DNA from: Candidatus Sulfobium sp.
GTDB taxonomy: Bacteria > Nitrospirota > Thermodesulfovibrionia > Thermodesulfovibrionales > UBA6898
Length of the DNA stretch: 20,201 bases
Assembly: GCA_037380845.1 (NCBI GenBank)
Contig: JARRRI010000058.1
Span: 29,274-49,474, forward strand
Direction of reading: 5' to 3'
The notes beneath the pieces were generated by a model. That model made no database searches and was not told where the DNA came from. It saw only the letters and a list, made by a program, of their open reading frames with translations. Shown here one piece after another: positions 1-18,622 of this stretch; the stretch's first letter is position 1; every line of letters begins with the position of its first letter. The translations under genes were made by a program, and so were the position numbers.

Positions 1-1001
1 CCCATGGCTTCTTCCGAAAGTGTGCTATTCGTTTCTTTTCTGTAGACGGTTATCGGCAGGTTTTTTTCATTAAAAGTCGGCTTCACATTGTAGATGCTTC
101 CCGTAGATACAGCCAACTTTTGAGTGCCAACGGATTTAACTGCCGAGATCATACAAACAAATTTCATAACGTTCCCCAAGAGGGCAATCCCCGGTTCAAG
201 AATGAGTTCGGGCCCTCTGTCCTGGGGGTATGCTTCTTTAAACTGAGGGGCAATCGCCTGAGCATAGTCCTCATAAGTAGGACAATAAAAAGCGAACTGC
301 TTCGCGAAGTCCTTGTCTATTTCACCAAAAAAACCACCACCCAAATCCAGAAAATCAGGTATCCGATCACCGAAACAGGCTTTACTGATCTCAATCATTT
401 TTTTGGCTCTCAGGTAATATGATCCTATGCTTCTGTGAGGAGTCGAAAAGTGGCAATGAAGCCCTTTGACACGGCAATTGGATATCTTCCCTAGGTACTC
501 AAATATTCTATCCACTTCTCCTCCACCGACATCACAACCAAACCGGGAGACATAATCCGTGCCGATATCGAAATTGCACCTTATGCCGACAGAGATTTCA
601 AGCTCCGGCTCCTTTCTTGCCAGAATGCCGACGAGTAAAGCTTCGTGAAATGAATCAAGATTGACAGTAGACCCGGCCTTTACGGCCTTCTCAATATCCG
701 AAGCCGTTTTTAGAGGACCATTGAAAATGATATTGCCTGGAGCAACTCCAACCTGTATTGCCAAATCATATTCCATCATTGAGACCACTTCGGCATAGCT
801 TCCTAATGAGTTGGCATATCTACATAGAGCGGGTGTATAATTTGTTTTATATGAAAAAGCCAGCCTAGTATGTGGATATATCGACTGGAAAGCAGACTGG
901 AAATCTCTGTAATTTGCATCAAACCGTTTTAAATTCAATAGGTAAAAAGATTCTCCATATTGCCCCGCCAGATTGCTGAGCAAATCCCAGGATAATTCCA
1001 T
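1..1001 (-). CDS. PLP-dependent Orn/DAP/Arg decarboxylase family protein (fold type III), 3' end outside window
   Basis: Not in the ORF track. Manual translation from ATG at 1001 stays open to position 1: MELSWDLLSNLAGQYGESFYLLNL...FSYKTN (PLP lysine)...AEVVS..E...IIFNGPLK...SRFG...GLHCH...FLDLGGG...LILEPG. Confidence 0.85.
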   Translation of the reverse strand, partial: MELSWDLLSNLAGQYGESFYLLNLKRFDANYRDFQSAFQSIYPHTRLAFSYKTNYTPALCRYANSLGSYAEVVSMMEYDLAIQVGVAPGNIIFNGPLKTASDIEKAVKAGSTVNLDSFHEALLVGILARKEPELEISVGIRCNFDIGTDYVSRFGCDVGGGEVDRIFEYLGKISNCRVKGLHCHFSTPHRSIGSYYLRAKKMIEISKACFGDRIPDFLDLGGGFFGEIDKDFAKQFAFYCPTYEDYAQAIAPQFKEAYPQDRGPELILEPGIALLGNVMKFVCMISAVKSVGTQKLAVSTGSIYNVKPTFNEKNLPITVYRKETNSTLSEEAM

Positions 1002-1122
1002 CAGAAAGCCCTTTCGTCACTTATCGATGACATTATTAATTTTAACAGACCAGACTTTTTTCAATAAAGTGTGCGATATTGGTCGCAAGGGAAAACTTGA
1101 CCTTGTTCGCAAGCATGACCAT

Positions 1123-2670
1123 TCAGCTGACGAACTTGCTTAAAAAAGCAACTGCCCCTGCTCCCTCTATCCCCACCTTTGCCATCACTTCCCGGAAGAT
1201 AAAGATATCCTCCCGCTCTATGCTCCTTGTGATCAGCAGGCTCGCGGCATAGCCACCTATAAACAGAAGAAAGTAAACCGGCAGCATCCAAGACTGAAGT
1301 GGAATGCTCTGGGCCAGGACATATATTAACACTCCCGTCAAGGCCGCCCCGACCAATGGCCTGAGATAAGCAGAGGTGAATGGATGCATGCTGTTATATC
1401 TGATCAGGCTCAACGAATACAGGAGATTGATGATTATGTAGGACGACATAGTGGCCAGCGCTGCCCCCGTAATGCCCATCCCGAGATATTTTATCAGCAC
1501 GTAGTTCAGAACTACATTAATTATCGCCCCTGTGATGGAAATGTTCATTATAGTTTTAGTGAGCCCGATTACTGTGAGGAGCATCCCGTTTGTGCCAAGA
1601 AAGGCGTTTATCATGAAGCCAATAGCCAGTATCCTCAGCGACATGGCAGCGTCGACAAACCGACTTCCAAAAAGCACTGTAATTGTCATCTCCGGAAAGA
1701 AGAAAAAGACGAAGAATAGCGGCAGGGTTGCTGCGAAAACCCATTTCGTGAGGACCTGATATGTTCTCTTAAGCTCCTGTGATTTCTTTTTCGCATATAT
1801 TTCACCTGCTATCGGCAGAAACACGTAGCCGAGGGCTGATAAAGGGAAAAGCAGCAGCCTCACAAGCGAAACACTCACGCTGTAGGTGCCCACGACTGCG
1901 GGCGTGGAGTAGCGTCCGAGCATCAGAGTATCCGACCACATAAGAGCAAGAGACATGATGGTGGACGCCAGCAGCGGAATGGAAAACTTCAGCAACTTCA
2001 TGTGCCGTCTTCCTGCCTTCGGCATAAAAGGCCGCGCACCAAGTTTCTGAACGCCGTAAACTACGACCAGAACGGATGTCGCCGCGCTGGACGCTACAAA
2101 GGCGTAGAGAATACCTTTTAAGTGCAACCCGAGAAAGATCGCCACGAGTAACAGAACCAGGTATAAAACAGGAGTAAAGACATCTGAAAAGACCCTCTGC
2201 CTGATTACGCCGAAGCCGAGCATCACCCCGCCTGCCACGCCTCCTGCCACACTGAACGGGATCAGAAAGGATATTACCTTGAGCGGGACGGCGAGCTCCG
2301 GGGTATAAAAGACCTTTCGGGCTATAAGACCGGAAAAGAGGTAAACTGCCGCGAAGCACAGCAGGCCCAGCGGCAGCAGCATCTGCATCCCCGCCCGCGC
2401 TGTATAGTAGGCCTCTTCCCTCTTCTCCTCGCCGAGGTGGAGGGAGACAAACCGGGACAGCCCCGAAGGTATTCCAAGTAAGATAACAGCCGAAATAACA
2501 CCCAGGACCGTAAGGACTAGCGAATAGATGCCGAACTCGACCTTTGTAATGTCCCTGACCACGAGGATCTTGATAAAAAACCAGAGCAGCTGACTGAAAG
2601 CCATGCTCGCCAAGACAAAGGTGGAGCCCTTGGCGGCTTTTTTTAAAGAAGAATTAACGGTCTCAGACAT
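1123..2670 (-). CDS. Wzx/MOP-family oligosaccharide flippase
   Basis: 515 aa with many hydrophobic segments; EFGIYSL, FSIPL..WSDTLMLG...VVGTY, NVVLNYVLI..GITGAALAT motifs typical of polysaccharide exporters. Confidence 0.88.
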   Translation of the reverse strand: MSETVNSSLKKAAKGSTFVLASMAFSQLLWFFIKILVVRDITKVEFGIYSLVLTVLGVISAVILLGIPSGLSRFVSLHLGEEKREEAYYTARAGMQMLLPLGLLCFAAVYLFSGLIARKVFYTPELAVPLKVISFLIPFSVAGGVAGGVMLGFGVIRQRVFSDVFTPVLYLVLLLVAIFLGLHLKGILYAFVASSAATSVLVVVYGVQKLGARPFMPKAGRRHMKLLKFSIPLLASTIMSLALMWSDTLMLGRYSTPAVVGTYSVSVSLVRLLLFPLSALGYVFLPIAGEIYAKKKSQELKRTYQVLTKWVFAATLPLFFVFFFFPEMTITVLFGSRFVDAAMSLRILAIGFMINAFLGTNGMLLTVIGLTKTIMNISITGAIINVVLNYVLIKYLGMGITGAALATMSSYIIINLLYSLSLIRYNSMHPFTSAYLRPLVGAALTGVLIYVLAQSIPLQSWMLPVYFLLFIGGYAASLLITRSIEREDIFIFREVMAKVGIEGAGAVAFLSKFVS

Positions 2671-2679
2671 CCAATACTC

Positions 2680-2688
2680 ATTATAACA
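2680..2688 (-). promoter_or_regulatory. Extended -10 element (TGTTATAAT) 9 nt upstream of the flippase ATG
   Basis: Minus strand reads TGTTATAATgagtattggATG; no SD in between. Confidence 0.55.
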
Positions 2689-2779
2689 AAAAGCTTTTTT
2701 GTAATCTTGGATCTTTCCCTTCCGGATGTAAACAGCAGACAGCCCTGAGATCCGATAGAAATTAGTCCCTGAAACATTT

Positions 2780-4741
2780 TTATTTATTGCGGATTACAGA
2801 AAGGGCCTCTTTTTCAAAGAGATGAGCGAGTTGGCCATATCTCTGTGTTTTCTTCATCCGAGCCAAGAGACTGAATGCCTGGTCTTTCCGTCCGTCTCTC
2901 AGCAAAAAGTTAATAAACGGCCATGCCACCCTCTCCGGAGGGGCCATGATAAAAGCCGATTTAAAGAAATCATTTCCCTTCTTCTTATCGCCGTCCCGCA
3001 TGAGGAAATCAGAATAGAAAAGAGTATTCAGCCCGTACTGGTCCGTGAGCTCCTGGACCAGGAAATCGTTAGAAGGGGGCATGTTCAGGACGCTTTCATA
3101 GCTTGTCTTTTCGAAAGCCTCCTTGTATTTCCGCCTAGTGTCCGATTCGAAAGCTCCGGCTGGCTGCCCCTTAGGCCATAGAGCAGCTGAAAAGAGATAC
3201 GGATAATAATCATAAAATTCAGCAACGACCTTTGTCATGCTCAGAGGGTTGTCGACAAAAAGCTTCTCCTTCAGCGCAAATTCATCGTTTATCTCTGAGA
3301 TCGTGCTCTTCAGACTGTGATAAAATCCCGGGTAAAGACCAGCGTATTTCCAGGCGGGAGCACACTCGAGCCCGAAAATGTCATTATTCCCGCTCGTATC
3401 CATGACCAGCACATCGTCTCTCAACCGCTCGACACCTTTCATATAAAAGGCGGTGAACATTGAGTTGTCACCGTGGTTCATGAGCAGACTCTTCTCCGGA
3501 AGAGACATGAGCATATCCCTGCCGTAAGTGTAGCAGATAACATTATTGCTCAGGCCGTATTGTCCGACAGTATAAGGCAGGAAAACAAAAGGCAGTACCG
3601 CCACGGCGTAAGACCCGAATCCAATCAGTGTTGACCAGCGCCTTCTCCTGATGAAAGAGAGGGTCTCTGCAAATCCGACCGAAATGAGGGAATACAGTAT
3701 GGGAACCGCAGGCAGAAAATATACTGAGACAACTTCGGTTCCTGCTAGGTTTAGCTTAGGTCCGGAAAATACCAGTTTTCCGAGCAGTAGAAACCAGACA
3801 ATTCCCGAAAATCCGAAATACGCCAATATCCTCAACCTCTTCCTCAATCCGATAAAGCCTATAAGAAGAAATGGCAAAACAGGCTTCACGCTCCAAAATG
3901 CCACATAGTAGAGACTGTTTCTAAGACCATACAACCATGCACTGCCAAAAGATAAAGTGCGCTCAAGAGTTAGAGGTGTGGATCCGCCCTTATAGTCCTG
4001 CCTGAAAAAAACCCTCAGGAAGTCTTTTAATGTCCCCGTATGGGAATACAGAATCAGACCCCCGTGGTCCGCCATTGCAAGAGACCTCAAATAGAGGAAG
4101 AGATAGACGGAAAATCCAAGGAGGAATAAGAGAAAACCGAAGATCGCCCATCTCACCGACAGCTCCTGCCACCTCATTGCCAGGGGAAACAGGACAATCA
4201 AACCCATGAAACCGATGGTATGGTGATTTCCCATTCCGAGGCCGATGAGGAAAAATGCCAAAAGAGAACTTCTGAAAATGTCCTTTCCCTTGATGATCCT
4301 TATGCCTAGATAAAAAACAATCATCGCCAGGAAACTATTGAGCGAGTAAGCTTCGGCCTTAATTGATTCCGTATAGAATATGGGGGATATCCCGCAAATC
4401 AGGGCCGCCGCCCACGACGCCGGCCTGCTTTCAGTAAGTTCCATGGAAACCTTGAAGACCATAAGACATGTGAGAGCGCCGGATATTGCGCTTACGAGAT
4501 TGACTTTGAGACCTACATTCCCGAGCGGAAGGAAAGTCAGGAGCTTCCCCAAAATTATGAACAGGGGATATCCCGGCGGGTGCGCTGAGCCGAGGGAAAA
4601 AGAGGCGGCGGCAAAGAGACTGCTGTCCCCGACATAGATCGTCGGGCAAAGGGAAATCAGGAATATGAGAAATGAGGCAGAAAGAACAACCGAACCATTT
4701 GTTTTCACATTCCTGGCAAACTCAGACATTGAAAAGTTCAC
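2780..4741 (-). CDS. DUF2723 / TMEM260-like GT-C membrane glycosyltransferase (start GTG 4741 or ATG 4729)
   Basis: PTIYVGDS.LF......LGSAHPPGYPLF..LGKL, AEAYSLN, LGMGNHHT, YLFLYLRS and later GDNSMF..FY...VERLR.DV motifs; multi-TM N-terminal region plus soluble C-terminal region. Confidence 0.82.
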   Translation of the reverse strand: MNFSMSEFARNVKTNGSVVLSASFLIFLISLCPTIYVGDSSLFAAASFSLGSAHPPGYPLFIILGKLLTFLPLGNVGLKVNLVSAISGALTCLMVFKVSMELTESRPASWAAALICGISPIFYTESIKAEAYSLNSFLAMIVFYLGIRIIKGKDIFRSSLLAFFLIGLGMGNHHTIGFMGLIVLFPLAMRWQELSVRWAIFGFLLFLLGFSVYLFLYLRSLAMADHGGLILYSHTGTLKDFLRVFFRQDYKGGSTPLTLERTLSFGSAWLYGLRNSLYYVAFWSVKPVLPFLLIGFIGLRKRLRILAYFGFSGIVWFLLLGKLVFSGPKLNLAGTEVVSVYFLPAVPILYSLISVGFAETLSFIRRRRWSTLIGFGSYAVAVLPFVFLPYTVGQYGLSNNVICYTYGRDMLMSLPEKSLLMNHGDNSMFTAFYMKGVERLRDDVLVMDTSGNNDIFGLECAPAWKYAGLYPGFYHSLKSTISEINDEFALKEKLFVDNPLSMTKVVAEFYDYYPYLFSAALWPKGQPAGAFESDTRRKYKEAFEKTSYESVLNMPPSNDFLVQELTDQYGLNTLFYSDFLMRDGDKKKGNDFFKSAFIMAPPERVAWPFINFLLRDGRKDQAFSLLARMKKTQRYGQLAHLFEKEALSVIRNK

Positions 4742-4850
4742 TTTCTTTCATTAAGCGATCCACAGCCAAAAAGTTGTCATAAATGCTTTCCCTAAAATGT
4801 CCCATCACTCCGCATCACAGCAATTATATTCTTTTTGGCATCTTTCCGGC

Positions 4851-4885
4851 AAAAAAAGCGGGAGCTGCCCTGTGGGAGCTCCCGC
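4851..4885 (-). terminator. Intrinsic terminator downstream of the pilin gene
   Basis: Minus strand GCGGGAGCTCCC-ACA-GGGCAGCTCCCGC followed by TTTTTTT, about 25 nt after the pilin stop. Confidence 0.88.
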
Positions 4886-4909
4886 CATGAACGTTCTTTT
4901 CCCTCCTGA

Positions 4910-5446
4910 TCAGTCTGCTGAAAGGACCTTTGAATACATTACGTTACCATCGTTGTCATACACTGACACGACGACCTGCCGGATTGAACTATCATCGGCA
5001 GGCGTGGCGCTAAGGCAGATCTGGCCTGCCATGGAAGAATCGCAGCCACCGCTGGTTCCGTCATTCCAAAGTTGTTTGCCGCCCCACGGCGAAGCCTCGT
5101 GGGCGTTGTTGTTCCTCGCGTCTGAGAAAGTATGGACAACCCCAGCATCTGCCAGAGCAGCGTTGGTATCGTCAGAGGTATTGACTATGCCGTCCCAATT
5201 GTCGTCAACCTCTTTAAGTGTGCCCTGCGGGGTGCCGGACTTCTTCGCCGCCACCATCCATGCAGTGAGTTCCGGCTCCGAGGCAACGGCTGTCCTCTCG
5301 ATTGCAGCTTTCCTGCTTCTTTCCTGCATGCCGATATAACCCGGGATGGCTATGGCCGCCAGTATACCGATGATCGCCACAACTATCAGAAGTTCGATAA
5401 GGGTAAAACCCTGTTGCTCCTTCACATTATTCATTGCCTTAAACAT
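4910..5446 (-). CDS. pilA: Type IVa major pilin (178-aa prepilin, 13-aa leader)
   Basis: MFKAMNNVKEQQG|FTLIELLIVVAIIGILAAIAIP class III signal with E5 and P22; SD AAGGAGGT 6 nt before ATG 5446; own sigma54 promoter and terminator, as expected for a major pilin. Confidence 0.9.
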   Translation of the reverse strand: MFKAMNNVKEQQGFTLIELLIVVAIIGILAAIAIPGYIGMQERSRKAAIERTAVASEPELTAWMVAAKKSGTPQGTLKEVDDNWDGIVNTSDDTNAALADAGVVHTFSDARNNNAHEASPWGGKQLWNDGTSGGCDSSMAGQICLSATPADDSSIRQVVVSVYDNDGNVMYSKVLSAD

Positions 5447-5550
5447 CAAAACACCTCCTTGTTAAATTCTTGCGGCCGAGAGCCGCAACAAAATCCCCTG
5501 CTGCAATTTTGTAGGACATCACCTCCTCAAGTAAACTTTCTTTACCTAGA

Positions 5551-5566
5551 AGCAGTTTCTATGCCA
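5551..5566 (-). promoter_or_regulatory. Sigma54 (-24/-12) promoter of the pilin gene
   Basis: TGGCATAGAAACTGCT has exact GG-N10-GC spacing; predicted TSS near 5540. Confidence 0.78.
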
Positions 5567-5630
5567 TGACGTGAGTAGATTGGCAGTCCAAAATCGCATC
5601 AAATTTAAGGCCAATTTCATCTTTGACGAC

Positions 5631-5666
5631 CAAAAAACGTCACTTGGCTGACAAATATCGTCACTT
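5631..5666. promoter_or_regulatory. Putative enhancer (UAS) for a PilR/NtrC-family activator
   Basis: Direct repeats CAAAAAACGTCACTT (5631-5645) and CAAATATCGTCACTT (5652-5666), 21 bp apart; the second lies in the palindrome TGAC-N7-GTCA; about 90-125 bp upstream of the sigma54 TSS. Confidence 0.6.
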
Positions 5667-5900
5667 TCATGGTTTGATTACCCGATAATACTCCTTAAAA
5701 GAGGAAAAAAACTTCAGCAAGAGCGGAAAACCTCGATGAACTATTGCCTCATGACAATTCTCAGAATAAAGAATAAGGGAACTTGAGCAGTATGGCAGAT
5801 GCCCGTTCAGTCCGATGATATCATTTTCCTCAGGAAAGTATTGCCGTCCCTTGTCGCATATTTTGCGGCACTGCCGACGACTATGCGACGGAACGAACTG

Positions 5901-5909
5901 TGGTATAAT
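5901..5909 (+). promoter_or_regulatory. Extended -10 element (TGGTATAAT) for the activase fusion gene
   Basis: TGnTATAAT 28 nt upstream of ATG 5938. Confidence 0.6.
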
Positions 5910-5937
5910 CTAACACAAAAAAACAGGCGGGGCGAGG

Positions 5938-8900
5938 ATGAAATATATCGGTCTTGATGCAGGTTCCGTAAGCGTAAAACTTGTTCTCCTCGATGAAAAG
6001 GGATCGAAGGTTTACGGGATCTACCGCAGGCATAGGGGGAAGCCGCTGCAGGCCGCCCTTGAGCTCCTTAAAGAAGTGTCAGGGGTAAGGAGTGAGGAGT
6101 CAGGTGCAAGGGCTCGCCCTTTAAAGTCAGAAGTAAACACCTCAGAAGCCGTTCCTCACACCCCACAATTTTCCCTCTCCGTAACAGGGTCGGCCGGGAG
6201 GCTTATCGGCTCCATCCTGGGCATTGAGCCGGTAAACGAGGTCGTAGCCCATGCCTTTTCCACCCGTAAGCTCTTTCCCGAGGTAAAAACGATCATAGAA
6301 CTGGGGGGAGAAGACTCGAAGCTTATCGCCCTTTCTGATGACTCGAACTCGGCGAAAGACTTTTCCATGAATTCCGTCTGCGCCGCCGGAACCGGTTCCT
6401 TCCTCGACCAGCAGGCAGAGAGGCTAAGGCTTTCGATCGAGGAATTCAGCGAACTGAGCCTGAAGTCTGAAAACCCTCCCAGAATCGCCGGACGGTGCAG
6501 CGTCTTTGCCAAATCCGACATGATACACCTTCAACAGATCGCCACCCCTGTCCACGACATAGTGGCGGGCCTATGCTTTGCCGTGGCGAGAAATTTCAAA
6601 GGTTCGATCGCGAGGGGACGGCAGATAATTGCGCCCGTCTCTTTTCAGGGAGGCGTGGCCGCGAATTCAGGCATGGTCAGGGCCTTCAAAGAAGTATTCG
6701 GCCTTGAGGCCCTTCTTGTGCCTGAAGAGCACGCGCTGATGGGCGCAATCGGTGCGGCGCTGAAGGATATGGACTCGGGAAGCTTCAATCCCTTTGACAT
6801 GTCTCTGCTTGAGGATTTTATCGGGACCGTCAAGCCCTCCGAAAAAGGGCACAAGCCGCTGATGAACGACGGCGACGACTTCGTTGAGAGGCACCTGAAA
6901 AACAGTGAGGAGTCGGAGCATTTCACCTCACACCTCACACCTCACGCCTCACGTTCTGCACGTGTCACTCATCACTCGTCGCCGCCTCGGAAGGCTTTTC
7001 TCGGCGTAGACATCGGGTCTATAAGCACAAACCTGGCGGTGATCGACGAGGAATGCAGGCTCTTGTCCAAACGCTACCTTATGACCGCCGGACGTCCGAT
7101 AGAGGCGGTGAGGCAGGGACTTGCGGAGATAGGGCAGGAAATAGCCGATAAGGTGGAAATAGCCGGAGTCGGAACGACCGGATCAGGAAGGTACATGATA
7201 GCCGATTATATAGGTGCGGATATAGTGAAAAACGAGATCACGGCGCAGGCCACGGCCGCCGCTTTTATCGACAGCGACGTGGACACCATTTTCGAGATCG
7301 GCGGACAGGATTCCAAGTATATATCTCTCAGGGACGGGGTGATCGCAGACTTCGAGATGAACAAGGCCTGCGCGGCCGGGACAGGCTCGTTTCTTGAGGA
7401 ACAGGCCGAGAAGCTGGGTATTTCGATAAAAGGCGATTTCCAGACATCCGCTTTCAATTCCTCAAATCCCTGCAGACTCGGGGAGCGGTGCACAGTATTC
7501 ATGGAAAATTCCCTGATGGCCAACCTGCAGCGCGGCACCGGCAAGGAGGACCTGCTGGCCGGTCTTGCATACTCGATCGTCCAGAACTATATCAACAGAG
7601 TTGTTTGCAAGAGATCGATAGGCAGGAAGATATTCTTTCAGGGAGGCGTTGCCTTCAACAAATCAGTTGTCGCCGCCTTCGAGAAGTATCTCGGCAAGGA
7701 TGTGACGGTTCCCCCCAACCACGATGTCACCGGCGCTATCGGCATGGCCCTGATAGCAAAAAAACACGTGGAAAGTCTGAAGTCAGAATGCAGAACGCAG
7801 AAGTTGAACGGCGCACGCCTCACACCTCACTCCTCACCCCTCACTTCCTTCAAAGGCTTTGAGCTGTCGAAGATACCCTATGAGATATCCTCATTCGAAT
7901 GCAAAGGCTGCCCCAATATATGCGAAATCAACAGGGTGAAGGTCGAAGGGGAGAAGGGATATCTCTTTTACGGCGGCCGGTGCGAAAAATACGATGTCAA
8001 GCGCGACAAGACGCCCCGCAATATTCAGGACCTCCTTGCCCTGAGGGAAAAGATGCTCTGGAAGGAGCACCTGAAATACGTCGAAAAGTCAGAAGTCAGA
8101 AACCGGAAACCGGCGAAAAAACAACTGAGAAACAAGCCTCACGGTTCGCGCGGAAAGATCGGCATCCCTTATGTCTTCTATTTCCATGATTTTCTGCCCT
8201 TCTGGACTACGCTTCTATGGGAGCTGGGGTTTAACGTCGAAGTCTCACCCGGGACGGAGAGGAACATAGTCGATCTGGGTCTCGAAAGTGTTCTCTCGGA
8301 AACCTGCTTTCCCGTGAAAGTCGCCCACGGTCATATCAGATATTTTCTCGAAAGGGAAGTGGACGCCGTATTTCTGCCGAGTTTCGTAAACCTCAACAAT
8401 GCCGGGGAGACATTCGAGAGAGGTCTTGCCTGTCCCTATACCCAGACCATCCCTTACAGCGCCCGTGTCGCATTCAGAAACCTCCGTCTCCTGACGCCCG
8501 TCATCGATCTGGGCAGGGGCAGCCGTTTCATGGAAAAAGAACTGAAGCGTGTCCTGCGACCGTTCGGCATAAACTACAGGGAGCTTTCAGCAGCTTTGAG
8601 GGCTGCCCATAAAGCCCAAACACAGTTTGAGCGTGACATTAAAGAGGAAGGCAGAAAGGTCCTTTCCTCTCTGAGGGACAAGGCCATAGTGGTTGTGGGC
8701 AGAGCCTACAATTCGCTGGACAAAGGCGTCAATCTTAACATATCAAGGAAGCTCGGAGACCTTGGGATGCAGGCTATCCCGGCGGATTTCCTGCCACTCG
8801 ATCCGGCCGGACTCAACGATGACTGGCCCAATATGTACTGGCGTGCAGGTCAGCGGATGCTTAGCGCGGCGAAGTTTATCCGGTCCCACCCCCTGCTCCA

Positions 8901-10350
8901 CGCCCTTTATATAGGAAATTTCTCCTGCGGTCCGGACTCCTTCATAACTAAATTTTTTGACATTGAAATGGCCGGCAAACCGTATCTCCACATCGAAATA
9001 GACGCCCACAGCGCCGACGCCGGGGTAATAACCCGATGCGAAGCGTTCCTCGACAGTATAAACAACAGAAATCAGAAGGTGGGGGACAGGAGCAAAACGA
9101 CGGAAAAAAGCGAAGAGAAGGGAACAACGCCACGCAATGGCTCCCGGTTCACGCGCGGCTCTTCACGCACCGTTTATATACCCTTCATGTCGGACCACGC
9201 CTTCGCACTGGCCGCCGCTTTTGAATACTGCGGGCTTCAGGCCGAGGTACTCCCCGAATCCTCGCACGAAAGGGTCGACCTCGGCAGGAAATATGTATCC
9301 GGGAAGGAATGCTATCCCTGTGCGGTAACAACCGGTGACATGGTGGGGAAAGCCCTCGAACCGGGCTTCGAGCCTGAGAAATCGGCTTTCTTCATGCCGT
9401 CCGGGTCGGGACCGTGCAGGTTCGGCCAGTACAACGTCTTCCACACTCTTGTCATGAAGGAACTCGGCCTTGACAACGTTCCGATCTTTTCCCCGAACCA
9501 GGACGAGAACTTCTATGAGCATCTGGGCATTGTAGGAAGTGATTTCAGCATGAGGTCCTGGAAGGGGATAATCGCCGTCGAACTGCTGAAAAAATGCCTG
9601 CATGAGACAAGGCCTTACGAAAAAGAAGAAGGTACTGCGGATGCATTGTACGACAACTATCTCAGGCGGGTGTACTTGTCAATCAGAGGTTCCGACGGGA
9701 ACATACAGTCCCTTCTCGCCAGGGCAAAAAAGGATTTCGGCCAGATTCCGAAGCATCCTGACAGAAAACCGCTCATCGGGATAGTCGGAGAAATATTTGT
9801 TCGTTCCAACAGATTTTCGAATGAGGATCTGGTGAGAAAAATAGAGGCCCTCGGCGGGGAAGCTTACCTGTCGCCGGTTGAGGAGTGGATACATTACGTG
9901 AATTATACGGCGCTGCGACGGGTCTTGATAAAAAAGGACATCTCTGGTATCATAAGCCTTCTGTTGAAGGGGTTCTTTCAAAAGAAAATAGAGAGAAGAT
10001 TCGGGAAGCATTTCGCCGGATTTCTGAAGACCCTGCACGAACCCCATACTGACGAGCTGATCGACAAGGCAGCCAGGTATGTCCACCCTTCGTTCGAGGG
10101 AGAGGCGATCCTCAGCATGGGCAAGAGCATCGATCTCATTCAAAGGGGATCGTCAGGTATAGTAAATGCAATGCCGTTCGGTTGCATGCCGGGCACTATT
10201 GTTAATGGATTGATGCGAGGGCTCGCGCTGGATTATGACATCCCGTGCCTCAGCATCCCTTACGACGGTTCCGAGTCCGTGACCTCTGATATTCAGCTTG
10301 AAGCTTTTATGGACCAGGCGAGGGAATACGGCGAGAAGCAGCAAAAGTAA
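5938..10350 (+). CDS. Fused acyl-CoA dehydratase activase (2x BcrAD/BadFG ATPase + DUF2229 + dehydratase/reductase-like domain); PlsA-PlsR/Ger-like
   Basis: Two ASKHA modules (GLDAGSVS..ELGGEDSK..MNSVCAAGTGSFL..RCSVFAKSD; GVDIGSIS..EIGGQDSK..MNKACAAGTGSFL..RCTVF), CKGCPNIC..GRCE, then ETCFPVKVAHGH, FSCGPDS, ECYPC, GPCRFGQY, PFGCMPG. Confidence 0.88.
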   Translation: MKYIGLDAGSVSVKLVLLDEKGSKVYGIYRRHRGKPLQAALELLKEVSGVRSEESGARARPLKSEVNTSEAVPHTPQFSLSVTGSAGRLIGSILGIEPVNEVVAHAFSTRKLFPEVKTIIELGGEDSKLIALSDDSNSAKDFSMNSVCAAGTGSFLDQQAERLRLSIEEFSELSLKSENPPRIAGRCSVFAKSDMIHLQQIATPVHDIVAGLCFAVARNFKGSIARGRQIIAPVSFQGGVAANSGMVRAFKEVFGLEALLVPEEHALMGAIGAALKDMDSGSFNPFDMSLLEDFIGTVKPSEKGHKPLMNDGDDFVERHLKNSEESEHFTSHLTPHASRSARVTHHSSPPRKAFLGVDIGSISTNLAVIDEECRLLSKRYLMTAGRPIEAVRQGLAEIGQEIADKVEIAGVGTTGSGRYMIADYIGADIVKNEITAQATAAAFIDSDVDTIFEIGGQDSKYISLRDGVIADFEMNKACAAGTGSFLEEQAEKLGISIKGDFQTSAFNSSNPCRLGERCTVFMENSLMANLQRGTGKEDLLAGLAYSIVQNYINRVVCKRSIGRKIFFQGGVAFNKSVVAAFEKYLGKDVTVPPNHDVTGAIGMALIAKKHVESLKSECRTQKLNGARLTPHSSPLTSFKGFELSKIPYEISSFECKGCPNICEINRVKVEGEKGYLFYGGRCEKYDVKRDKTPRNIQDLLALREKMLWKEHLKYVEKSEVRNRKPAKKQLRNKPHGSRGKIGIPYVFYFHDFLPFWTTLLWELGFNVEVSPGTERNIVDLGLESVLSETCFPVKVAHGHIRYFLEREVDAVFLPSFVNLNNAGETFERGLACPYTQTIPYSARVAFRNLRLLTPVIDLGRGSRFMEKELKRVLRPFGINYRELSAALRAAHKAQTQFERDIKEEGRKVLSSLRDKAIVVVGRAYNSLDKGVNLNISRKLGDLGMQAIPADFLPLDPAGLNDDWPNMYWRAGQRMLSAAKFIRSHPLLHALYIGNFSCGPDSFITKFFDIEMAGKPYLHIEIDAHSADAGVITRCEAFLDSINNRNQKVGDRSKTTEKSEEKGTTPRNGSRFTRGSSRTVYIPFMSDHAFALAAAFEYCGLQAEVLPESSHERVDLGRKYVSGKECYPCAVTTGDMVGKALEPGFEPEKSAFFMPSGSGPCRFGQYNVFHTLVMKELGLDNVPIFSPNQDENFYEHLGIVGSDFSMRSWKGIIAVELLKKCLHETRPYEKEEGTADALYDNYLRRVYLSIRGSDGNIQSLLARAKKDFGQIPKHPDRKPLIGIVGEIFVRSNRFSNEDLVRKIEALGGEAYLSPVEEWIHYVNYTALRRVLIKKDISGIISLLLKGFFQKKIERRFGKHFAGFLKTLHEPHTDELIDKAARYVHPSFEGEAILSMGKSIDLIQRGSSGIVNAMPFGCMPGTIVNGLMRGLALDYDIPCLSIPYDGSESVTSDIQLEAFMDQAREYGEKQQK
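6078..6167 (+). repeat. In-frame degenerate heptamer repeat block 1
   Basis: GTCAGGG GTAAGGA GTGAGGA GTCAGGT ... CCTCACA CCCCACA. Confidence 0.65.
6905..6985 (+). repeat. In-frame heptamer repeat block 2
   Basis: GTGAGGA GTCGGAG ... CCTCACA CCTCACA CCTCACG CCTCACG (6926-6953) ... TGTCACT CATCACT. Confidence 0.8.
7775..7845 (+). repeat. In-frame heptamer repeat block 3
   Basis: GTCTGAA GTCAGAA TGCAGAA CGCAGAA ... CCTCACA CCTCACT CCTCACC CCTCACT (7818-7845). Confidence 0.8.
8088..8152 (+). repeat. In-frame degenerate heptamer repeat block 4
   Basis: GTCAGAA GTCAGAA ACCGGAA ACCGGCG ... CCTCACG GTTCGCG. Confidence 0.65.
9064..9153 (+). repeat. In-frame highly degenerate heptamer block 5
   Basis: AACAGAA ATCAGAA GGTGGGG GACAGGA ... 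GCTCCCG GTTCACG, inside a low-complexity interdomain linker. Confidence 0.45.
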
Positions 10351-10478: not shown

Positions 10479-10577
10479 GTGGGGAACGTCGTTAAATGGC
10501 GCAAAAAGAAGATGAGCAAGCATAAGCACAGGAAGCTGCTCAAAAAGACGAAACATCAGAGAAGAAGAAACAAATAA
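10479..10577 (+). CDS. Small basic ribosomal protein bS22 / mS38 (AURKAIP1/COX24, DUF1713) family, 32 aa
   Basis: SD AAGGAGGT (10465-10472) 6 nt before GTG; translation MGNVVKWRKKKMSKHKHRKLLKKTKHQRRRNK matches the [23 protein letters not shown].QRR pattern of bS22. Confidence 0.88.
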   Translation: MGNVVKWRKKKMSKHKHRKLLKKTKHQRRRNK

Positions 10578-12564
10578 GTCCGCTTGGCAGCCCCTGCAAC
10601 GACGCGTTGCAGTGCACTCTCTGAAAGACGGACTGAAGCGGATTCCTTCCGGACTTAAGGCGGACACGGGCACGGCTGACATATGCCGCGGCACTTTTCG
10701 GTTCCAAAGCGATGGCCCCCGTATACGCCTCTGCCGCCTTTTCATACTTGCCGTCCAGCATCAGCGCAAAACCCAGGTTGCAGACTGCTTCGAAATAATT
10801 CGGGTTCAGGGCTATCGCCCGGGCAAAGTCCCGTTGCGCATTTTCGAGTGCCCCCTCTTTACCGAAGGAAATTCCGCGATTATTAAACGCCTCGGAATAA
10901 TCGGGCTTCAATGAAATTGCCTTCGTGAAATCCCTTATCGCCTTATCATGCATCCCCTGACGCTCATAAGTCCGTCCGCGATCGTTAAACGCCTCGGAAT
11001 AACCGGGCTTCAGCGAAATTGCCTTCGTGAAATCCCTTATGGCTTCTCCGTACGTTCCCTCGTTATCGTGCGCCAATCCTCGGTTATAGTACGCAGGCGC
11101 GTACCCGGGCTTCAGTGCTATTGCCGTGTTGAAGTCACGCAATGCGATACCGTTTGCCCCCTCGTCCATCCGGGCGACCCCCCTGTTGTTGTACGCAAAA
11201 GCGACGGAAGGCTCCCGTTCGATTACGTAATCCCAAAGAGTTATGCTGTTTCTCCAGACGCTGATCTGTTTCACAGTCATTACGGAAAGGAACAAAAGGA
11301 CGCACCCCGCCACGGCCGCAGCCATGAAAGACCGGCCCGGCATGCGGCGTTTCAGTCCGTCTGCACCACCGTACCCCCTGGCGACGGCAAGTCCGAGGAC
11401 AAAAAAAGGGCCGATGCTAGGGAGATAGGCGTATCTGTCTGCCATTGACTGCATGCCGACCCGAACGATCCCCAGCACGGGGAGCAAGGTAACGATATAA
11501 TAGGCCCATATCGCAAGCCATAATTTACGGGTTCGGAACACGATAACGCATCCGGTGATCACGAAAATGGCAAGGACCGCCGTCATTTGTCTCACGGAAA
11601 GCATCGAAACGTCTCCCGGATAAGGATAAAAGGGGACAAGGCCCATCGGCAGGACCATCTTTAGAAGGTAGGAAAAAAGTGCCTGAGCCGCCACCAGAAG
11701 CCTGGCCGGTACATCGGCGACTTTTAAAGGTACGACGTGTCCGCCGATGTCTTCCGCCAGGAAAGTGACAACGGCGGATATCGTGCTCAGCGCGATAAAA
11801 GGAAGTTTTTCCGTTACCGTCGACGCAAACGTCTTCAAAGACCGAATTTTTCCAAGAGGATACCAGTCCGCTATCAGCATAACAACAGGGAGGGTAACCG
11901 CCATCGGCTTGCTCAAAAGGGCGCAGGCAAACAAGACAAGGGACAGCAAATAATTCCCGGGCGCGGGCCGGCCGTATTTTTCGGCGTCTGCGTAACGGAG
12001 GTACGCCAGAAGACTGAGACAAAAAAACATCCCGCACAAGAGGTCCTTCCTCTCGGAAACCCACGCCACCGATTCTACATGAATCGGGTGAATGCCGAAC
12101 AGGAGCCCCGTAAACGCTCCCGCGATGACGATATCTCTTTCGCCTGCAAAAGGGCCGGCTCCGTTCCCGGGGACCTGCCGTTCCGCCGCACAATCCAGAA
12201 GCCGGAAACAGACAAACGTGACCAGCATCGCGTTCAGGGCATGGATGACATTGCTTGTCAGATGGTGTCCCACCGGATTCAGGCCCCAGACGCCGTAATC
12301 AATCGCGTGAGAAATCCACGTGAGGGGATGCCAATTGCCCGCGTAAAACTTCGCGAACGCCCATCCGAAGACATCCCACAGCGGTCTCTGGATATGCATG
12401 TTCGCGTAAACGTAAGTATTGTCGTCCCAATTTGTAAATCCATTCCGCAGGGACGGCAAATAGTTAAGCAGGGTAACCAGAAAAACCATGATCCCGGCAA
12501 GCGCCCTGAGACGCCGATAGTCTTCTGTTTTCATGGAAGGCGGCGGAACGGAACCATGACCCAT
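10540..12564 (-). CDS. TMTC-like GT-C glycosyltransferase with C-terminal TPR array
   Basis: NGFTNWDDNTYV (DD motif), WHPLTWISHAIDY, HPIHVESVAWVSERKDLL, LLSKPMAVTLP, ADRYAYLP, then about six 34-aa TPRs (AYNNRG...A..DF..AI.L.P). Confidence 0.85.
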   Translation of the reverse strand: MGHGSVPPPSMKTEDYRRLRALAGIMVFLVTLLNYLPSLRNGFTNWDDNTYVYANMHIQRPLWDVFGWAFAKFYAGNWHPLTWISHAIDYGVWGLNPVGHHLTSNVIHALNAMLVTFVCFRLLDCAAERQVPGNGAGPFAGERDIVIAGAFTGLLFGIHPIHVESVAWVSERKDLLCGMFFCLSLLAYLRYADAEKYGRPAPGNYLLSLVLFACALLSKPMAVTLPVVMLIADWYPLGKIRSLKTFASTVTEKLPFIALSTISAVVTFLAEDIGGHVVPLKVADVPARLLVAAQALFSYLLKMVLPMGLVPFYPYPGDVSMLSVRQMTAVLAIFVITGCVIVFRTRKLWLAIWAYYIVTLLPVLGIVRVGMQSMADRYAYLPSIGPFFVLGLAVARGYGGADGLKRRMPGRSFMAAAVAGCVLLFLSVMTVKQISVWRNSITLWDYVIEREPSVAFAYNNRGVARMDEGANGIALRDFNTAIALKPGYAPAYYNRGLAHDNEGTYGEAIRDFTKAISLKPGYSEAFNDRGRTYERQGMHDKAIRDFTKAISLKPDYSEAFNNRGISFGKEGALENAQRDFARAIALNPNYFEAVCNLGFALMLDGKYEKAAEAYTGAIALEPKSAAAYVSRARVRLKSGRNPLQSVFQRVHCNASLQGLPSGLICFFFSDVSSF
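10594..10612. other. Perfect 8-bp hairpin just after the bS22-like stop (possible terminator/stabiliser; no U-tract)
   Basis: CTGCAACG-ACG-CGTTGCAG. Confidence 0.4.
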
Positions 12565-12569
12565 GGCCT

Positions 12570-12575
12570 ATTATA
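12570..12575 (-). promoter_or_regulatory. -10 box TATAAT 5 nt upstream of ATG 12564
   Basis: Minus strand gggTATAATaggccATG; no SD. Confidence 0.5.
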
Positions 12576-12759
12576 CCCTAAACTTGCATGAGTGAGAGGA
12601 CGGCCGGGCACGGATAAAAGCTTATATAAGACGACTGGATCTGCCGTGATTGCAGCAGTTCCCTGTGCGGCCACGGGGGACCCGCGGCACTCTTTTCTCC
12701 GGCCGGACGAACAGGAAGGAGAACAGCCTCACCGCACCGGTATGGGCGCGAGAAAACTT

Positions 12760-12789
12760 TTGAAACAATCATCTTCGATAGGGTATCAT
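12760..12789 (+). promoter_or_regulatory. Sigma70-type promoter directly abutting ATG 12795
   Basis: TTGAAA-N18-TATCAT-N5-ATG; no SD. Confidence 0.55.
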
Positions 12790-12794
12790 TCAGT

Positions 12795-13799
12795 ATGTTA
12801 AAATCTTTTTCTACGACCGGAATCGGCAGTCTTCCACTTCTGGACGCCCGGGAAGCATGCAGACTTATTCTCCGGACATTCGATATCCCTTTCTGGCCCC
12901 AGCTTCCGAGGGTGTCGTTCAGGGAGTATATGATCCCCCAGTATTCCGAGGGAATGCCTTTTGCAAGAATAGATATTGAAAAAGAGACGGTATGGGTCGA
13001 CAAAAACTCATCCGATGAGCTTGAACGGTTTTATGAAAACTGGACGGAGGAAAGCAGGGTTGCCATCTCCGAAGATTACGCAAAGGGTCTTCATGCATTC
13101 CTCGGTATGGAGCGTGGCAGACCGCTTGATTACGTCAAGGGCCATGTTACCGGCCCTCTGACTTTTACTCTCGGCTTGAAGGATGCCGAAGGCAAAGCGG
13201 TATATTTCGACGAGGAACTCCGTGAGATTTCCCTCATGCTCCTGAAGGCCAAAACGAGGTGGCAGATCGACATGCTGAGACAATGCGCTCCTGGCGTGAT
13301 TATATTCATAGACGAGCCGATCCTTTCCGCCCTGGGCAGCTCCAGCTATCTCGGGGTCAACAGTGAAGAGGCATTGAGACTTCTCAGGGAGATGGCCGCG
13401 GCCATACAGTCTGAAGGAGCGGTAGCCGGCATTCACTGCTGCGGCAATGCCGACTGGCCTCTCGTGATCAGAAGCGGCGCCGACATTGTCAACTTCGACG
13501 CATATGATTACGTCGATACCATCTCGCTCTACCCGTCGGAATTCACCGATTTTCTGAAAAGGGACGGCCGCCTTGCCTGGGGGATTGTGCCGACGTCCGA
13601 AGCCATACGGGGCGAGACTCCCGAATCGGTCAGGGCGCGCTTCGAGAGGGGCATGGAAAATCTCTCCGGCGCGATCCCGGGTGACCTTCTGAGGTCCAAC
13701 ATATTGCTGACTCCTTCCTGCGGCACGGGGTCGCGGACTGTCGACGAAACCCTGAAGGTGTTCCAGTTGCTTATGAGGCTGAAAGAGGAACTCTCGTGA
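12795..13799 (+). CDS. Core (single-barrel) methionine synthase, MesB-like
   Basis: 334 aa; TTGIGSLP, PFWPQLP, KGHVTGPLT, IFIDEP, GIHCCG, FDAY, AWGIVP, LTPSCG correspond to the MetE catalytic domain without the folate-binding half. Confidence 0.78.
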   Translation: MLKSFSTTGIGSLPLLDAREACRLILRTFDIPFWPQLPRVSFREYMIPQYSEGMPFARIDIEKETVWVDKNSSDELERFYENWTEESRVAISEDYAKGLHAFLGMERGRPLDYVKGHVTGPLTFTLGLKDAEGKAVYFDEELREISLMLLKAKTRWQIDMLRQCAPGVIIFIDEPILSALGSSSYLGVNSEEALRLLREMAAAIQSEGAVAGIHCCGNADWPLVIRSGADIVNFDAYDYVDTISLYPSEFTDFLKRDGRLAWGIVPTSEAIRGETPESVRARFERGMENLSGAIPGDLLRSNILLTPSCGTGSRTVDETLKVFQLLMRLKEELS

Positions 13800-14437
13800 A
13801 GGGAATTTTCATATCCCTTGAAGGCATAGAGGGAACAGGCAAGACCACCCAGGCCGGGTTCCTGGCGGGACATCTGCGGAGAAAAGGGCTCAGCGTCACG
13901 AAGACGGAGGAGCCGGGTGGCACGGCGATAGGCCTGAGGATCAGGGAACTGCTCCTTTCCCCGGGAAGCACGAACATGGACCCGGTAACTGAACTTCTTC
14001 TGTACAATGCATCTCGGGTCCAGCATATCAGGGAAGTCATCATGCCGGTCCTTGAGAGAGGAGATGTCGTGGTTACAGACAGGTTCAGCGATTCGACGAC
14101 GGCCTACCAGGGGTACGGAAGGGGAATAGACCTCAAACTGATAGACTCCCTGGACCTGATCGCCACGCGGAGGCTGCGGCCCGATCTCACAATCCTGCTC
14201 GATATAGACGTGGAAACCGGCTTGAAAAGGAACAGGAAGATAAACAAAGACGACAGGATTGAACGCGAAGATATCTCTTTTCACGAAAAGGTAAGGCAGG
14301 GGTTTATCCATATTGCGGCGCAGTCGCCGGACAGAATAAGAATAGTCGATTGTTCCGGGCCGGTCGATACTGTCCGGGAAGGCGTGGCTGCCGTAATCGA
14401 CGAATTTCTGGAAAAACAGAGCGTTGTCGAGAGATGA
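13796..14437 (+). CDS. tmk: Thymidylate kinase
   Basis: FISLEGIEGTGKTTQ P-loop, EPGGT, DRFSDST.AYQG.GRG, PDLTILLD; GTGA overlap with the upstream stop. Confidence 0.96.
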   Translation: MKGIFISLEGIEGTGKTTQAGFLAGHLRRKGLSVTKTEEPGGTAIGLRIRELLLSPGSTNMDPVTELLLYNASRVQHIREVIMPVLERGDVVVTDRFSDSTTAYQGYGRGIDLKLIDSLDLIATRRLRPDLTILLDIDVETGLKRNRKINKDDRIEREDISFHEKVRQGFIHIAAQSPDRIRIVDCSGPVDTVREGVAAVIDEFLEKQSVVER

Positions 14438-14539
14438 GGAGGCACGAGGTCCGGGTCTTCCGAGGAGAGGACTTCCTCCGGGTAATTCAGTAATGCATTG
14501 TGGCAATCGTTTTTCATGTCTTCAGGAATTTTTTGGGCC

Positions 14540-14612
14540 GTGTTCCCGCGGAAACGGGAATACGGGCTTTTTTAAGGGTAAAGGATTCCCGAATACTACC
14601 TCGGGAATGACA
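14540..14612. repeat. Degenerate RPE/dRS3-like double-hairpin palindromic element
   Basis: GTGTTCCCG-CGGAAA-CGGGAATAC ... GGATTCCCGA-ATACTACC-TCGGGAATGACA. Confidence 0.6.
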
Positions 14613-14683
14613 ATAAATTGACTCGTTTAAAGAGTTTCTTATGAGCAGGTCTTCTGAAACTCTATAGGCAGCCAAGTGTTTAA

Positions 14684-15721: not shown

Positions 15722-15722
15722 A

Positions 15723-16577
15723 ATGCCGGGAGTGGTCGGAATACGTTTCAAGAACTGCGGTAAGATATATGATTTCGAGTCCAACGGATTTGATGTCCGT
15801 CCGGGCGACCGGGTGGTGGTCGAATCGGAGTACGGACTCAGCATAGGCACCGTAGTGGTCGGTCCCCGGGAGACCGAACCTGCTGCGCGGGAACTGAAAA
15901 GGGTCCTCCGTGTCGCAGGAGAACATGATTTCCAGCAGAAAAAGGAGAACGAGAAGTTTGAGACCGAGGCCAGAAACTTCTGTCTCGAGCGGATAATGGC
16001 GCGTGGTCTGCCCATGAAGCTGGTCTGTTCTGAAGTCACCCTGGACAGAAAAAGGATAATATTTTATTTTACTGCAGACGGCAGAATAGACTTCAGAGAA
16101 CTGGTCAAGGACCTCGCGGCGAAATTCAAGACGAGGATCGAGATGCGACAGATCGGGGTCCGCGACAAGGCAAAGCTGGTCGGCGGTCTCGGCCTCTGCG
16201 GCAAGGAGCTCTGCTGCAGGGTTTTCCTCACCTCATTCGAGCCGATTTCCATAAAGATGGCTAAACAGCAGGACCTCACGCTCAATACCGGCAAGCTCTC
16301 GGGCATCTGCGGCAGACTGATGTGCTGCCTGGGTTATGAATATTCCGAGGCGGCCGGAAACCAGCGCTCCATGGAAAAAGGCGCGGCCGGGGAAGAAAAA
16401 GCCGCAGAGGCGGCAGCCGAAGACAGCGGTGTCCGCCCGGAGGATGTTTGCTGTCCTGAAGAGGCGCCGGTGGTTCAGGCTGCTGCTCCTCAGGAGGTCG
16501 AAAAGAAACCGGAAGGCCGTAAGAAGAACAGAAAAAGAAGAAGGAGGTACAGGAAGAAAGCGCATAAAAATGAATAG
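15723..16577 (+). CDS. ricT: PSP1-domain protein RicT/YaaT (start ATG 15723 or TTG 15711)
   Basis: VVGIRFK..GKIYDF, FYFTADGRIDFRELVKDLA..FKTRIEMRQIGVRD, GLCGKELCC, KLSGICGRLMCCL.YE; basic tail. Confidence 0.92.
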   Translation: MPGVVGIRFKNCGKIYDFESNGFDVRPGDRVVVESEYGLSIGTVVVGPRETEPAARELKRVLRVAGEHDFQQKKENEKFETEARNFCLERIMARGLPMKLVCSEVTLDRKRIIFYFTADGRIDFRELVKDLAAKFKTRIEMRQIGVRDKAKLVGGLGLCGKELCCRVFLTSFEPISIKMAKQQDLTLNTGKLSGICGRLMCCLGYEYSEAAGNQRSMEKGAAGEEKAAEAAAEDSGVRPEDVCCPEEAPVVQAAAPQEVEKKPEGRKKNRKRRRRYRKKAHKNE

Positions 16578-18591: not shown

Positions 18592-18622
18592 AGTCTGTAT
18601 ACAAGTTATTGTTTAAGGCAGC

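Follow-up and report, generated by a model that had tools for sequence, protein, structure and literature searches.

What does a bacterial glycosyltransferase of the TMEM260 family transfer its sugar to? The question is raised by a stretch of DNA of 20,201 nucleotides from Candidatus Sulfobium sp. (G000:C58:29274-49474; hereafter the window), part of a genome of 3.18 Mb in 104 contigs, in which a gene for a DUF2723/TMEM260-like GT-C glycosyltransferase follows a type IV prepilin gene. The nearest protein relatives of the window are found in metagenome-assembled genomes (MAGs) of Nitrospirota and Thermodesulfovibrionales. On the minus strand, the left 5.6 kb of the window hold, in this order, a promoter-like element, the prepilin gene, a terminator, the GT-C gene, a flippase gene and a decarboxylase gene. 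All features that a preliminary description of this DNA had listed, namely pilin, terminator, DUF2723 GT-C, flippase and a modifying enzyme, were found, and all of them on the minus strand.

DUF2723/TMEM260-like proteins are widespread in bacteria, and the literature searched assigns them no acceptor. A literature search for 'DUF2723' returned the human TMEM260 paper alone, which notes only 'distant homologs in bacteria' for this family (PMC10214176). No literature linking TMEM260 or DUF2723 to pili was found, and the word 'bacteria' does not occur in the text of a preprint on the TMEM260 structure (10.64898/2026.03.17.711096).

On genomic and structural grounds, we read the GT-C as a probable O-glycosyltransferase specific for pilin and supplied with a lipid-linked sugar, and hypothesize that the locus is a pilin-accessory cassette. 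We consider it fairly probable that the TMEM260-type GT-C O-glycosylates the pilin encoded just upstream, and possibly also a second pilin belonging to the same module. A transfer of lipid-linked sugar to Ser/Thr of the pilin had been proposed in the preliminary description; it is supported by the linkage of the two genes and by homology to TMEM260, with the residues for donor binding and for the catalytic base retained.

The glycosyltransferase and the pilin encoded upstream

The GT-C gene (2780..4741, minus strand) encodes 653 amino acids when counted from GTG; a database twin of the protein begins four codons downstream and has 649 amino acids. Its proposed membership of DUF2723 was borne out by a hidden Markov model search, in which the protein matched PF11028 (TMEM260-like) with 90.5 bits (E 1.4e-25), above the curated cut-off of 24.2, and PMT_2 with E 1.1e-9. 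A family profile built from 31 full-length relatives matched the solved structures of human TMEM260 (9RQL, 9RQM, 9RQN) with E 1.8e-62. This match spans the whole transmembrane module, profile positions 4-434 aligning to residues 31-465 of 9rql_A; past profile position 434 the human chain is unaligned, i.e. the C-terminal domain is unmatched by human sequence. An AlphaFold2 model of the protein (pLDDT 85, pTM 0.87) displays about 11 transmembrane helices followed by a periplasmic beta/alpha domain and TPR-like helices, with strands at 419-523 and helices at 529-652 in the C-terminal part. Designed-TPR chains match the profile at positions 555-612 (E 9.5e-6). The top folds retrieved for the model by Foldseek are ArnT, STT3/PglB/AglB, ALG9/12 and Pmt4.

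According to the TMEM260 structure preprint, D52 and H67 of the human enzyme serve donor alignment, R264 and Y267 contact phosphate and sugar, R355 in TMH10 contacts the mannose, D441 of the luminal domain is the catalytic base, and TPR 'fingers' clasp an extended acceptor segment (10.64898/2026.03.17.711096). Human TMEM260 carrying D52A is inactive (PMC10214176). Five of the six human residues tested are kept in the alignment, where D52, H67, R264, Y267 and D441 correspond to D39, H54, R247, Y250 and D425 of the window GT-C. D39, the Asp of a YVGDS motif in the first extracytoplasmic loop, is invariant in the 31 full-length relatives, as are R247 and D425; for H54 and Y250 the share of relatives with the same residue is at least 90%. 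Judged by these residues, the GT-C appears competent to glycosylate Ser/Thr of proteins from a polyprenyl-phosphate sugar. The co-fold of the GT-C with the mature pilin (residues 14-178) scored 0.01, the mark being 0.32.

The prepilin gene (4910..5446, minus strand) encodes 178 amino acids and matches PF07963 (E 1.5e-9) and TIGR02532 (E 8.6e-10). It is preceded by a Shine-Dalgarno sequence and starts with ATG at the 5446 side, where the list of open reading frames (ORFs) begins instead at TTG, 5449. The leader MFKAMNNVKEQQG of 13 amino acids is followed by a mature part of 165 amino acids that begins with FTLIELL, and the C-terminus reads ...KVLSAD, in line with the ending in SAD described before. 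The earlier argument that glycosylation of a C-terminal Ser of the TfpO type does not apply is reasonable, given this ending and a domain search in which the GT-C had no match to Wzy_C (PF04932).

By its N-terminal signature, ...AIAIPGYIGMQER, the window pilin belongs to one of five pilin classes, termed class A. It aligns with 13 GT-C-linked pilins at 50-70% identity. The genome holds 13 prepilin-type N-termini, among which two, the window gene and one 16 kb away, have the look of stand-alone T4a-type pilins; the earlier label of a 'major pilin' is plausible. Conserved Ser/Thr residues of the class A pilins are S57 and T59 (in KKSGT, just past the long helix), S106 (in SPW) and the Ser of a C-terminal S-x-D. 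These four are candidate acceptor positions, and candidates only. Near-identical DNA is also contained in marsh metagenome runs; a search for sequencing runs listed DNA runs of such metagenomes only, and no RNA runs. Contigs of four runs, aligned to positions 1-6000 of the window, placed near-identical DNA in runs of another study, gave no informative joints or variants, and included contigs of other organisms drawn by the conserved pilin N-terminus.

About 105 bp upstream of the pilin ATG lies a sigma-54-type -24/-12 promoter-like element, TGGCAT-N5-CTGCT (5551..5566, minus strand). This motif has one match in the window against 0.05 expected, and five of 100 shuffles hold one. Among 20 related loci, six carry the motif ahead of their first pilin gene; elsewhere in these loci it does not occur. 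Between the pilin and GT-C genes, a Rho-independent terminator-like element (about 4851..4886, minus strand) consists of a GC-rich hairpin followed by U7; the free energy of the hairpin is -29.3 kcal/mol, where shuffled sequences average -20.3 (z -2.8) and 1 of 200 shuffles is as stable. Terminators between pilin and accessory gene were checked in the window. A simple terminator scan of positions 1-6000 skipped this hairpin owing to its loop and found 8 candidates where 7.6 were expected, which is not above chance. Likewise, a sigma-70 promoter scan of the same positions found 6 against 6.5 expected, and a promoter-like site before the GT-C gene therefore carries no weight.

Linkage of pilin and glycosyltransferase across genomes

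A search for related loci yielded 78 loci, derived from the best 80 of 417 confirmed relatives, all of which were scanned for prepilin N-termini. A tree of GT-C proteins was built with 66 rows, namely the window protein and 65 loci with an X-free GT-C frame of at least 500 amino acids; 13 loci were dropped (L024, L031, L049, L051, L058, L066, L069, L070, L075, L076, L080, L091, L095). The window GT-C falls into a clade of 19 (SH-aLRT 100). In all 18 assessable rows of this clade, the gene immediately before the GT-C is a pilin gene of the same orientation, whose end is at most a few hundred bases away from the start of the GT-C. The remaining row, L036, begins at a contig end and is unassessable. 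Three of the dropped loci (L031, L051, L058) have a pilin 0-19 bp upstream of the GT-C; in another, L024, the GT-C is frameshifted and tblastn displays pilin-like remnants just upstream. Outside the clade there are 47 rows: 35 without a pilin within 3 kb, 2 with a pilin within 3 kb, 5 unassessable, and 5 from Elusimicrobia.

The five Elusimicrobia loci, with a pilin downstream of the DUF2723 gene, were downgraded as candidates, because an rsmG-like frame intervenes and the arrangement may be plain synteny. In these loci (L040 9872-10969, plus strand; L041, L043, L050, L064) a pilin with a normal G/FTLIEL site is in frame with the upstream rsmG-like methyltransferase; this open frame without a stop reflects either an internal pilin start or a lost stop.

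In a sample of the phylum, 28 of 301 genomes carry the gene (E <= 1e-20). It is absent from all five genomes of the same family and present in 10 of 11 genomes of one genus of the same order. Upstream pilins, one or more, occur in 17 of the 18 same-order loci of this sample, and in none of 11 distant loci that match the N-terminal part only. The recurrence of the pilA-DUF2723 linkage, which the preliminary description had named as a test, is thus strong and lineage-specific. In many loci, including one of an Aquificaceae MAG, the two genes overlap or are separated by 0-40 bp, which suggests co-translation.

The linkage also respects the type of pilin. When the five classes of the directly upstream pilin are mapped on a tree of 32 distinct GT-Cs, four changes are required, which is the minimum; shuffled trees require 18.3 on average, and none of 200 shuffles is as low. 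Three genomes (G166, G142 and a Nitrospira-labelled MAG) contain two cassettes of different class, and in these each GT-C clusters with the GT-Cs linked to the same class of pilin, away from the other GT-C of its genome. In class C cassettes (L033-L035, L101, L105, L127), two or three tandem pilins of two sub-types stand before the GT-C.

Divergent from the pilin gene, the window contains a gene of 1470 amino acids on the plus strand (5938..10350); 12 of 22 related loci have this gene beside the cassette, with 57-80% identity. Judged by this gene, classes A and C share one chromosomal site, their GT-Cs being about 30% identical. It marks a fixed insertion site for differing pilin-GT-C classes, and the whole behaves as a pilin-accessory cassette that can be exchanged at a constant position. 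Kin share linked genes, and for this reason the linkage shows durable co-inheritance of, and selection on, the pilin/GT-C pair, and not chemistry. The 1470-amino-acid protein itself consists of two BcrAD/BadFG ATPase domains fused with DUF2229 (coenzyme A-enzyme activase-like). Further to the right (10540-20201), the list of ORFs gives a minus-strand gene of 674 amino acids, followed by plus-strand genes of 334, 213, 345, 288 and 751 amino acids.

Two further genes belong to the module. In G142, pilin, GT-C, a membrane protein of 215 amino acids (u215) and a second pilin follow each other directly, and no island of sugar genes is inserted; the core module therefore consists of these four genes. 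In the window's genome, u215 (L018 1196-1843, corresponding to G000:C58:18196-18843, minus strand) is followed by the second T4a-type pilin (C58:17746-18195) on the same strand as the cassette. Between G142 and the window's genome, the u215 proteins are 58% and the second pilins 42% identical. Homologues of u215 directly after the GT-C are found in G142, in L052 and in eight same-order loci (L104, L106-L113), making it the third conserved component of the cassette. In u215, one N-terminal and two C-terminal hydrophobic helices flank a helical-repeat domain (AlphaFold2 pLDDT 87). No Pfam or NCBIfam family matches it, the Atlas gives unnamed clusters only, and a Foldseek search returned nothing at E <= 0.001 apart from weaker matches to TPR-like repeats.

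A second conserved accessory membrane protein after the GT-C may bring to mind a role in assembly, the more so as accessory genes downstream of pilA can encode assembly factors (PMC11841053). The main task of the GT-C itself would then be to assist pilin folding or assembly without catalysis, as a chaperone or adaptor similar to TfpY. However, its donor-binding residues and the Asp of the catalytic base are invariant or nearly so in the 31 relatives, and TfpY-like proteins are described as comprising three N-terminal helices and beta-sheets, unlike a GT-C (PMC11841053). A purely structural role appears very improbable to us.

Sugar supply and competing readings

If the enzyme acts on pilin, it needs a donor, and the genes downstream of it offer candidates. 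Directly after the GT-C gene in the window lies a gene for a MOP-superfamily (Wzx/MATE-like) lipid-linked sugar flippase of 515 amino acids (1123..2670, minus strand), which matches Polysacc_synt (E 2.5e-20), Polysacc_synt_3 (E 6.8e-19) and MatE (E 1.1e-16). A MATE-type flippase is known to serve a GT-C three-component system (PMC11127046). The idea that the adjacent flippase supplies the donor finds partial support. A MOP flippase gene is the next gene after the GT-C gene both in the window and in four of seven class A loci examined (L019, L020, L022, L023), and it is the fourth gene examined downstream in a fifth class A locus; however, no MOP flippase was found downstream of the GT-C in six loci of other classes. 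The conserved core is therefore pilin and GT-C, and not the flippase.

The next gene encodes an Orn/DAP-type pyridoxal phosphate (PLP)-dependent decarboxylase, of which the window holds the 5' part (3..1001, minus strand) before the gene runs off its left end; the protein has 383 amino acids in the genome. This is the 'modifying enzyme' of the preliminary description, which does exist, and lies just outside the interval 1123..5446 to which it had been assigned. The decarboxylase is the first gene after the flippase in a sugar-synthesis island of about 13.5 kb, which is inserted between GT-C and u215 in the window's genome. It is followed by an ATP-grasp ligase with a PylC-like N-domain, a Sulfotransfer_3 sulfotransferase, a DesI-like sugar 4-aminotransferase (556 bits against a cut-off of 650 bits) and a GT2 of 313 amino acids; then by two rhamnosyltransferase-like GT2s, a GT4, a methyltransferase on the opposite strand, a heptosyltransferase-like GT9, a GT2 of 253 amino acids, u215 and the second pilin.

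The segment L018 7787-13274 (minus strand; G000:C58:24787-30274) thus combines 4-aminotransferase, ATP-grasp ligase, PLP decarboxylase and sulfotransferase. Their annotation suggests that the island may produce an amino-acylated, decarboxylated and possibly sulfated 4-amino-6-deoxyhexose. The GT2 of 253 amino acids, about 12 kb from the GT-C, best matches the polyprenyl-phosphate sugar synthases AglJ, PpgS, dolichyl-P hexose transferase, PgfS and ArnC, in all cases far below curated cut-offs, and is a candidate donor synthase. Across the 13 related loci examined, the downstream sugar genes vary from genome to genome. As these genes and the flippase differ between loci, the sugar supply is the variable and the pilin-GT-C pair the constant part. 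In the class A locus L021 (10051-14570, plus strand), for example, the genes downstream of the GT-C encode a GT4, a radical SAM enzyme with B12 binding, a prenyltransferase of the UbiA family and an NAD-dependent epimerase/dehydrogenase, a set reminiscent of polyprenyl-phosphate pentose donor pathways.

Several points weigh against pilin as the acceptor. The gene, carried by none of the five same-family genomes and by 28 of the 301 genomes sampled from the phylum, is patchy and therefore dispensable for piliation. Most sampled DUF2723 lineages are without a pilin link, hence the family as a whole has other acceptors. Neighbours inherited as a cassette co-vary without any relation of enzyme and substrate, and most carriers are kin from one order. 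Among the same-order loci the exception, G074, has a truncated GT-C of 423 amino acids and no pilin ORF upstream. The two genome samples overlap (the GT-Cs of L101 and L033 are identical, as are those of L126 and L030) and are not independent; the phylum sample therefore widens the count and is no replicate. A strong terminator and a promoter-like site, the latter no better than chance, stand between the pilin and GT-C genes. The mannose-contacting R355 of the human enzyme aligns to V340 in the window GT-C, and because of this replacement its handling of the sugar probably differs from that of mannose by TMEM260. An initiating phosphoglycosyltransferase was not found in the island, the only Bac_transf of the genome being located on C38. 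Finally, the island holds genes resembling those for lipopolysaccharide (LPS), namely the GT9 and the rhamnosyltransferase-like genes, and three Wzy_C proteins are encoded on other contigs (C37 and C44 only); with these encoded elsewhere, the island product could go to LPS or to another transferase.

Part of this would fit a GT-C that serves another acceptor, be it LPS/O-antigen, a side branch of extracellular polysaccharide built via a three-component system, or envelope proteins in general, with the pilin as a long-standing neighbour in a mobile surface-antigen island. The LPS-like genes (GT9, the two GT2s, the GT4 and the Wzx-like flippase) and the three Wzy_C proteins point in this direction, as do the 35 other DUF2723 rows without a nearby pilin; moreover, systems that add side branches to glycans are characterised by a GT-C together with a flippase and a polyprenyl-phosphate sugar synthase (PMC11127046). 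However, 6 of the 13 related loci hold pilin and GT-C without adjoining sugar genes, the module of G142 is free of an island, and pilin, not glycan genes, is the constant partner. The GT-C subclade follows the pilin class even inside one genome, and the catalytic base and the TPR-like, putative acceptor domain resemble those of a protein O-glycosyltransferase. On balance, we regard another acceptor as unlikely.

The patchy distribution, the two loci with frameshifted or truncated GT-C, and the nature of the locus as a site of cassette replacement would also be compatible with a meaningless pairing, i.e. a cassette hitch-hiking at a recombination-prone site, with a GT-C that acts elsewhere or decays. 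Against this stand a linkage that persists down to about 28-30% GT-C identity, across several pilin classes and into the Aquificaceae MAG, the overlaps or close spacing in many loci, and the invariance of functional residues, because of which the enzyme is taken to be under selection. We consider hitch-hiking quite improbable, less likely than another acceptor; a non-catalytic adaptor is less likely still.

Returning to a GT-C that glycosylates its upstream pilin, a possible mechanism may be outlined. The prepilin would be anchored in the inner membrane by its N-terminal helix, its globular part being periplasmic. A lipid-linked donor would arise at the cytoplasmic face of this membrane and cross it with the help of the MOP flippase encoded beside the GT-C, the island of about 13.5 kb supplying a strain-specific sugar or oligosaccharide. 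The transmembrane module of the GT-C would bind the polyprenyl-phosphate (undecaprenyl-type) sugar via D39, H54, R247 and Y250, its periplasmic TPR-like and beta/alpha domain would hold an extended stretch of pilin, and D425, the counterpart of the human catalytic base D441, would activate the hydroxyl of an accepting Ser/Thr. Expression of the accessory genes may be kept low relative to pilin by the terminator that precedes them. In pilA alleles of P. aeruginosa, a terminator after pilA tunes the accessory gene (PMC11841053).

A second DUF2723/PMT_2 paralogue of the genome (L097, contig C72, 1-1044, minus strand), truncated by the end of the contig and 348 amino acids long, is the last gene of a Tad/Flp pilus operon (TadG-like, CpaE-like, CpaF, TadB, TadC; L097 1-7456). 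TadC lies directly upstream of relatives of this paralogue in G055 and in G073, which has three tandem copies; in G150 no TadC was found within 1.5 kb of the relative. The paralogue is possibly a Tad-pilus-linked branch of the DUF2723 family. Taking both together, one may speculate that bacterial TMEM260-type GT-Cs of several lineages are dedicated to type IV filament subunits, here of the T4a and the Tad/Flp type; that the window GT-C is an O-oligosaccharyltransferase, not a single-mannose enzyme, and takes a complex donor, built by the inserted island from 4-amino-6-deoxyhexose and rhamnose and possibly amino-acylated and sulfated, from a Wzx-like flippase; and that the animal IPT-domain O-mannosyltransferase arose from a pilin-modifying ancestor. 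As a whole, this extended reading is doubtful. To our knowledge, O-oligosaccharyltransferase chemistry is not known for the PMT/TMEM260 branch of GT-C enzymes.

Comparison with known systems

Human TMEM260, the protein O-mannosyltransferase of IPT domains, is the relative of the window GT-C by family (PF11028), by the match of the transmembrane module and by the five shared residues. Both have about 11 transmembrane helices, and the modelled beta/alpha and TPR-like C-terminal part of the window GT-C may correspond to the Rossmann-like and TPR acceptor-binding domain of TMEM260. However, the window GT-C is bacterial and would act in the periplasm, whereas TMEM260 resides in the endoplasmic reticulum; its likely acceptor is a type IV pilin in place of an IPT domain, V340 takes the place of R355, and its donor would be an undecaprenyl-type lipid. 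With the GtrA/B/C-type three-component systems, such as that of Citrobacter GT136 (PMC11127046), the locus shares a GT-C, a MATE/MOP flippase and a candidate polyprenyl-phosphate sugar synthase in one island. Those systems decorate polysaccharides after polymerisation, whereas here the pilin is the constant neighbour and the base is of the protein-acceptor type.

Among pilin glycosyltransferases, the Wzy_C enzymes TfpO/PilO and PglL are located next to pilin genes or act on pilin and use lipid-linked glycans flipped by Wzx, and TfpO is likewise encoded by a pilA-adjacent accessory gene (PMC11841053). Unlike these, the window GT-C is without Wzy_C, and its pilin does not end in Ser. The succession of pilin, terminator and accessory gene is common to the TfpO and TfpW cassettes of P. 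aeruginosa, and in the group IV locus pilA-tfpW(-tfpX) pilin, terminator, GT-C and a small membrane accessory protein follow in the same order as here (PMC11841053). TfpW, a GT-C pilin arabinofuranosyltransferase, also uses a lipid-linked donor and acts in the periplasm, with genes for donor synthesis elsewhere or nearby (PMC11841053; 10.1101/2020.04.19.049825). In contrast, the window GT-C belongs to the TMEM260/DUF2723 family and shares with TfpW at least the fold class, and u215 differs from TfpX/Y/Z as these are described (PMC11841053).

When the literature was searched for pilin glycosylation by GT-C enzymes and TfpW, the systems already described from Pseudomonas came up; a search on pilin glycosylation in Thermodesulfovibrio returned nothing on topic, as judged by title and abstract. 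To these, the window contributes a Nitrospirota-centred clade whose cassettes match the pilin class, a core of four genes that includes u215, an island of sugar genes inserted into this core, and the paralogue in the Tad operon. Class-matched cassettes at a fixed site, combined with variable sugar islands, resemble diversifying surface-antigen loci. In Pseudomonas, such diversifying loci protect pili from phages.

If the pilin is indeed the acceptor, it would be the first substrate for the bacterial branch of TMEM260, and pilin glycosyltransferases would comprise a third, presumably unrelated enzyme family beside TfpO/PglL and TfpW. Pilin and GT-C would also constitute a two-gene system with a soluble, well-behaved acceptor, in which target choice by TMEM260-type enzymes could be studied. 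In comparison with the systems above, the window cassette is a known layout of pilin and accessory glycosyltransferase, built on a different enzyme family.

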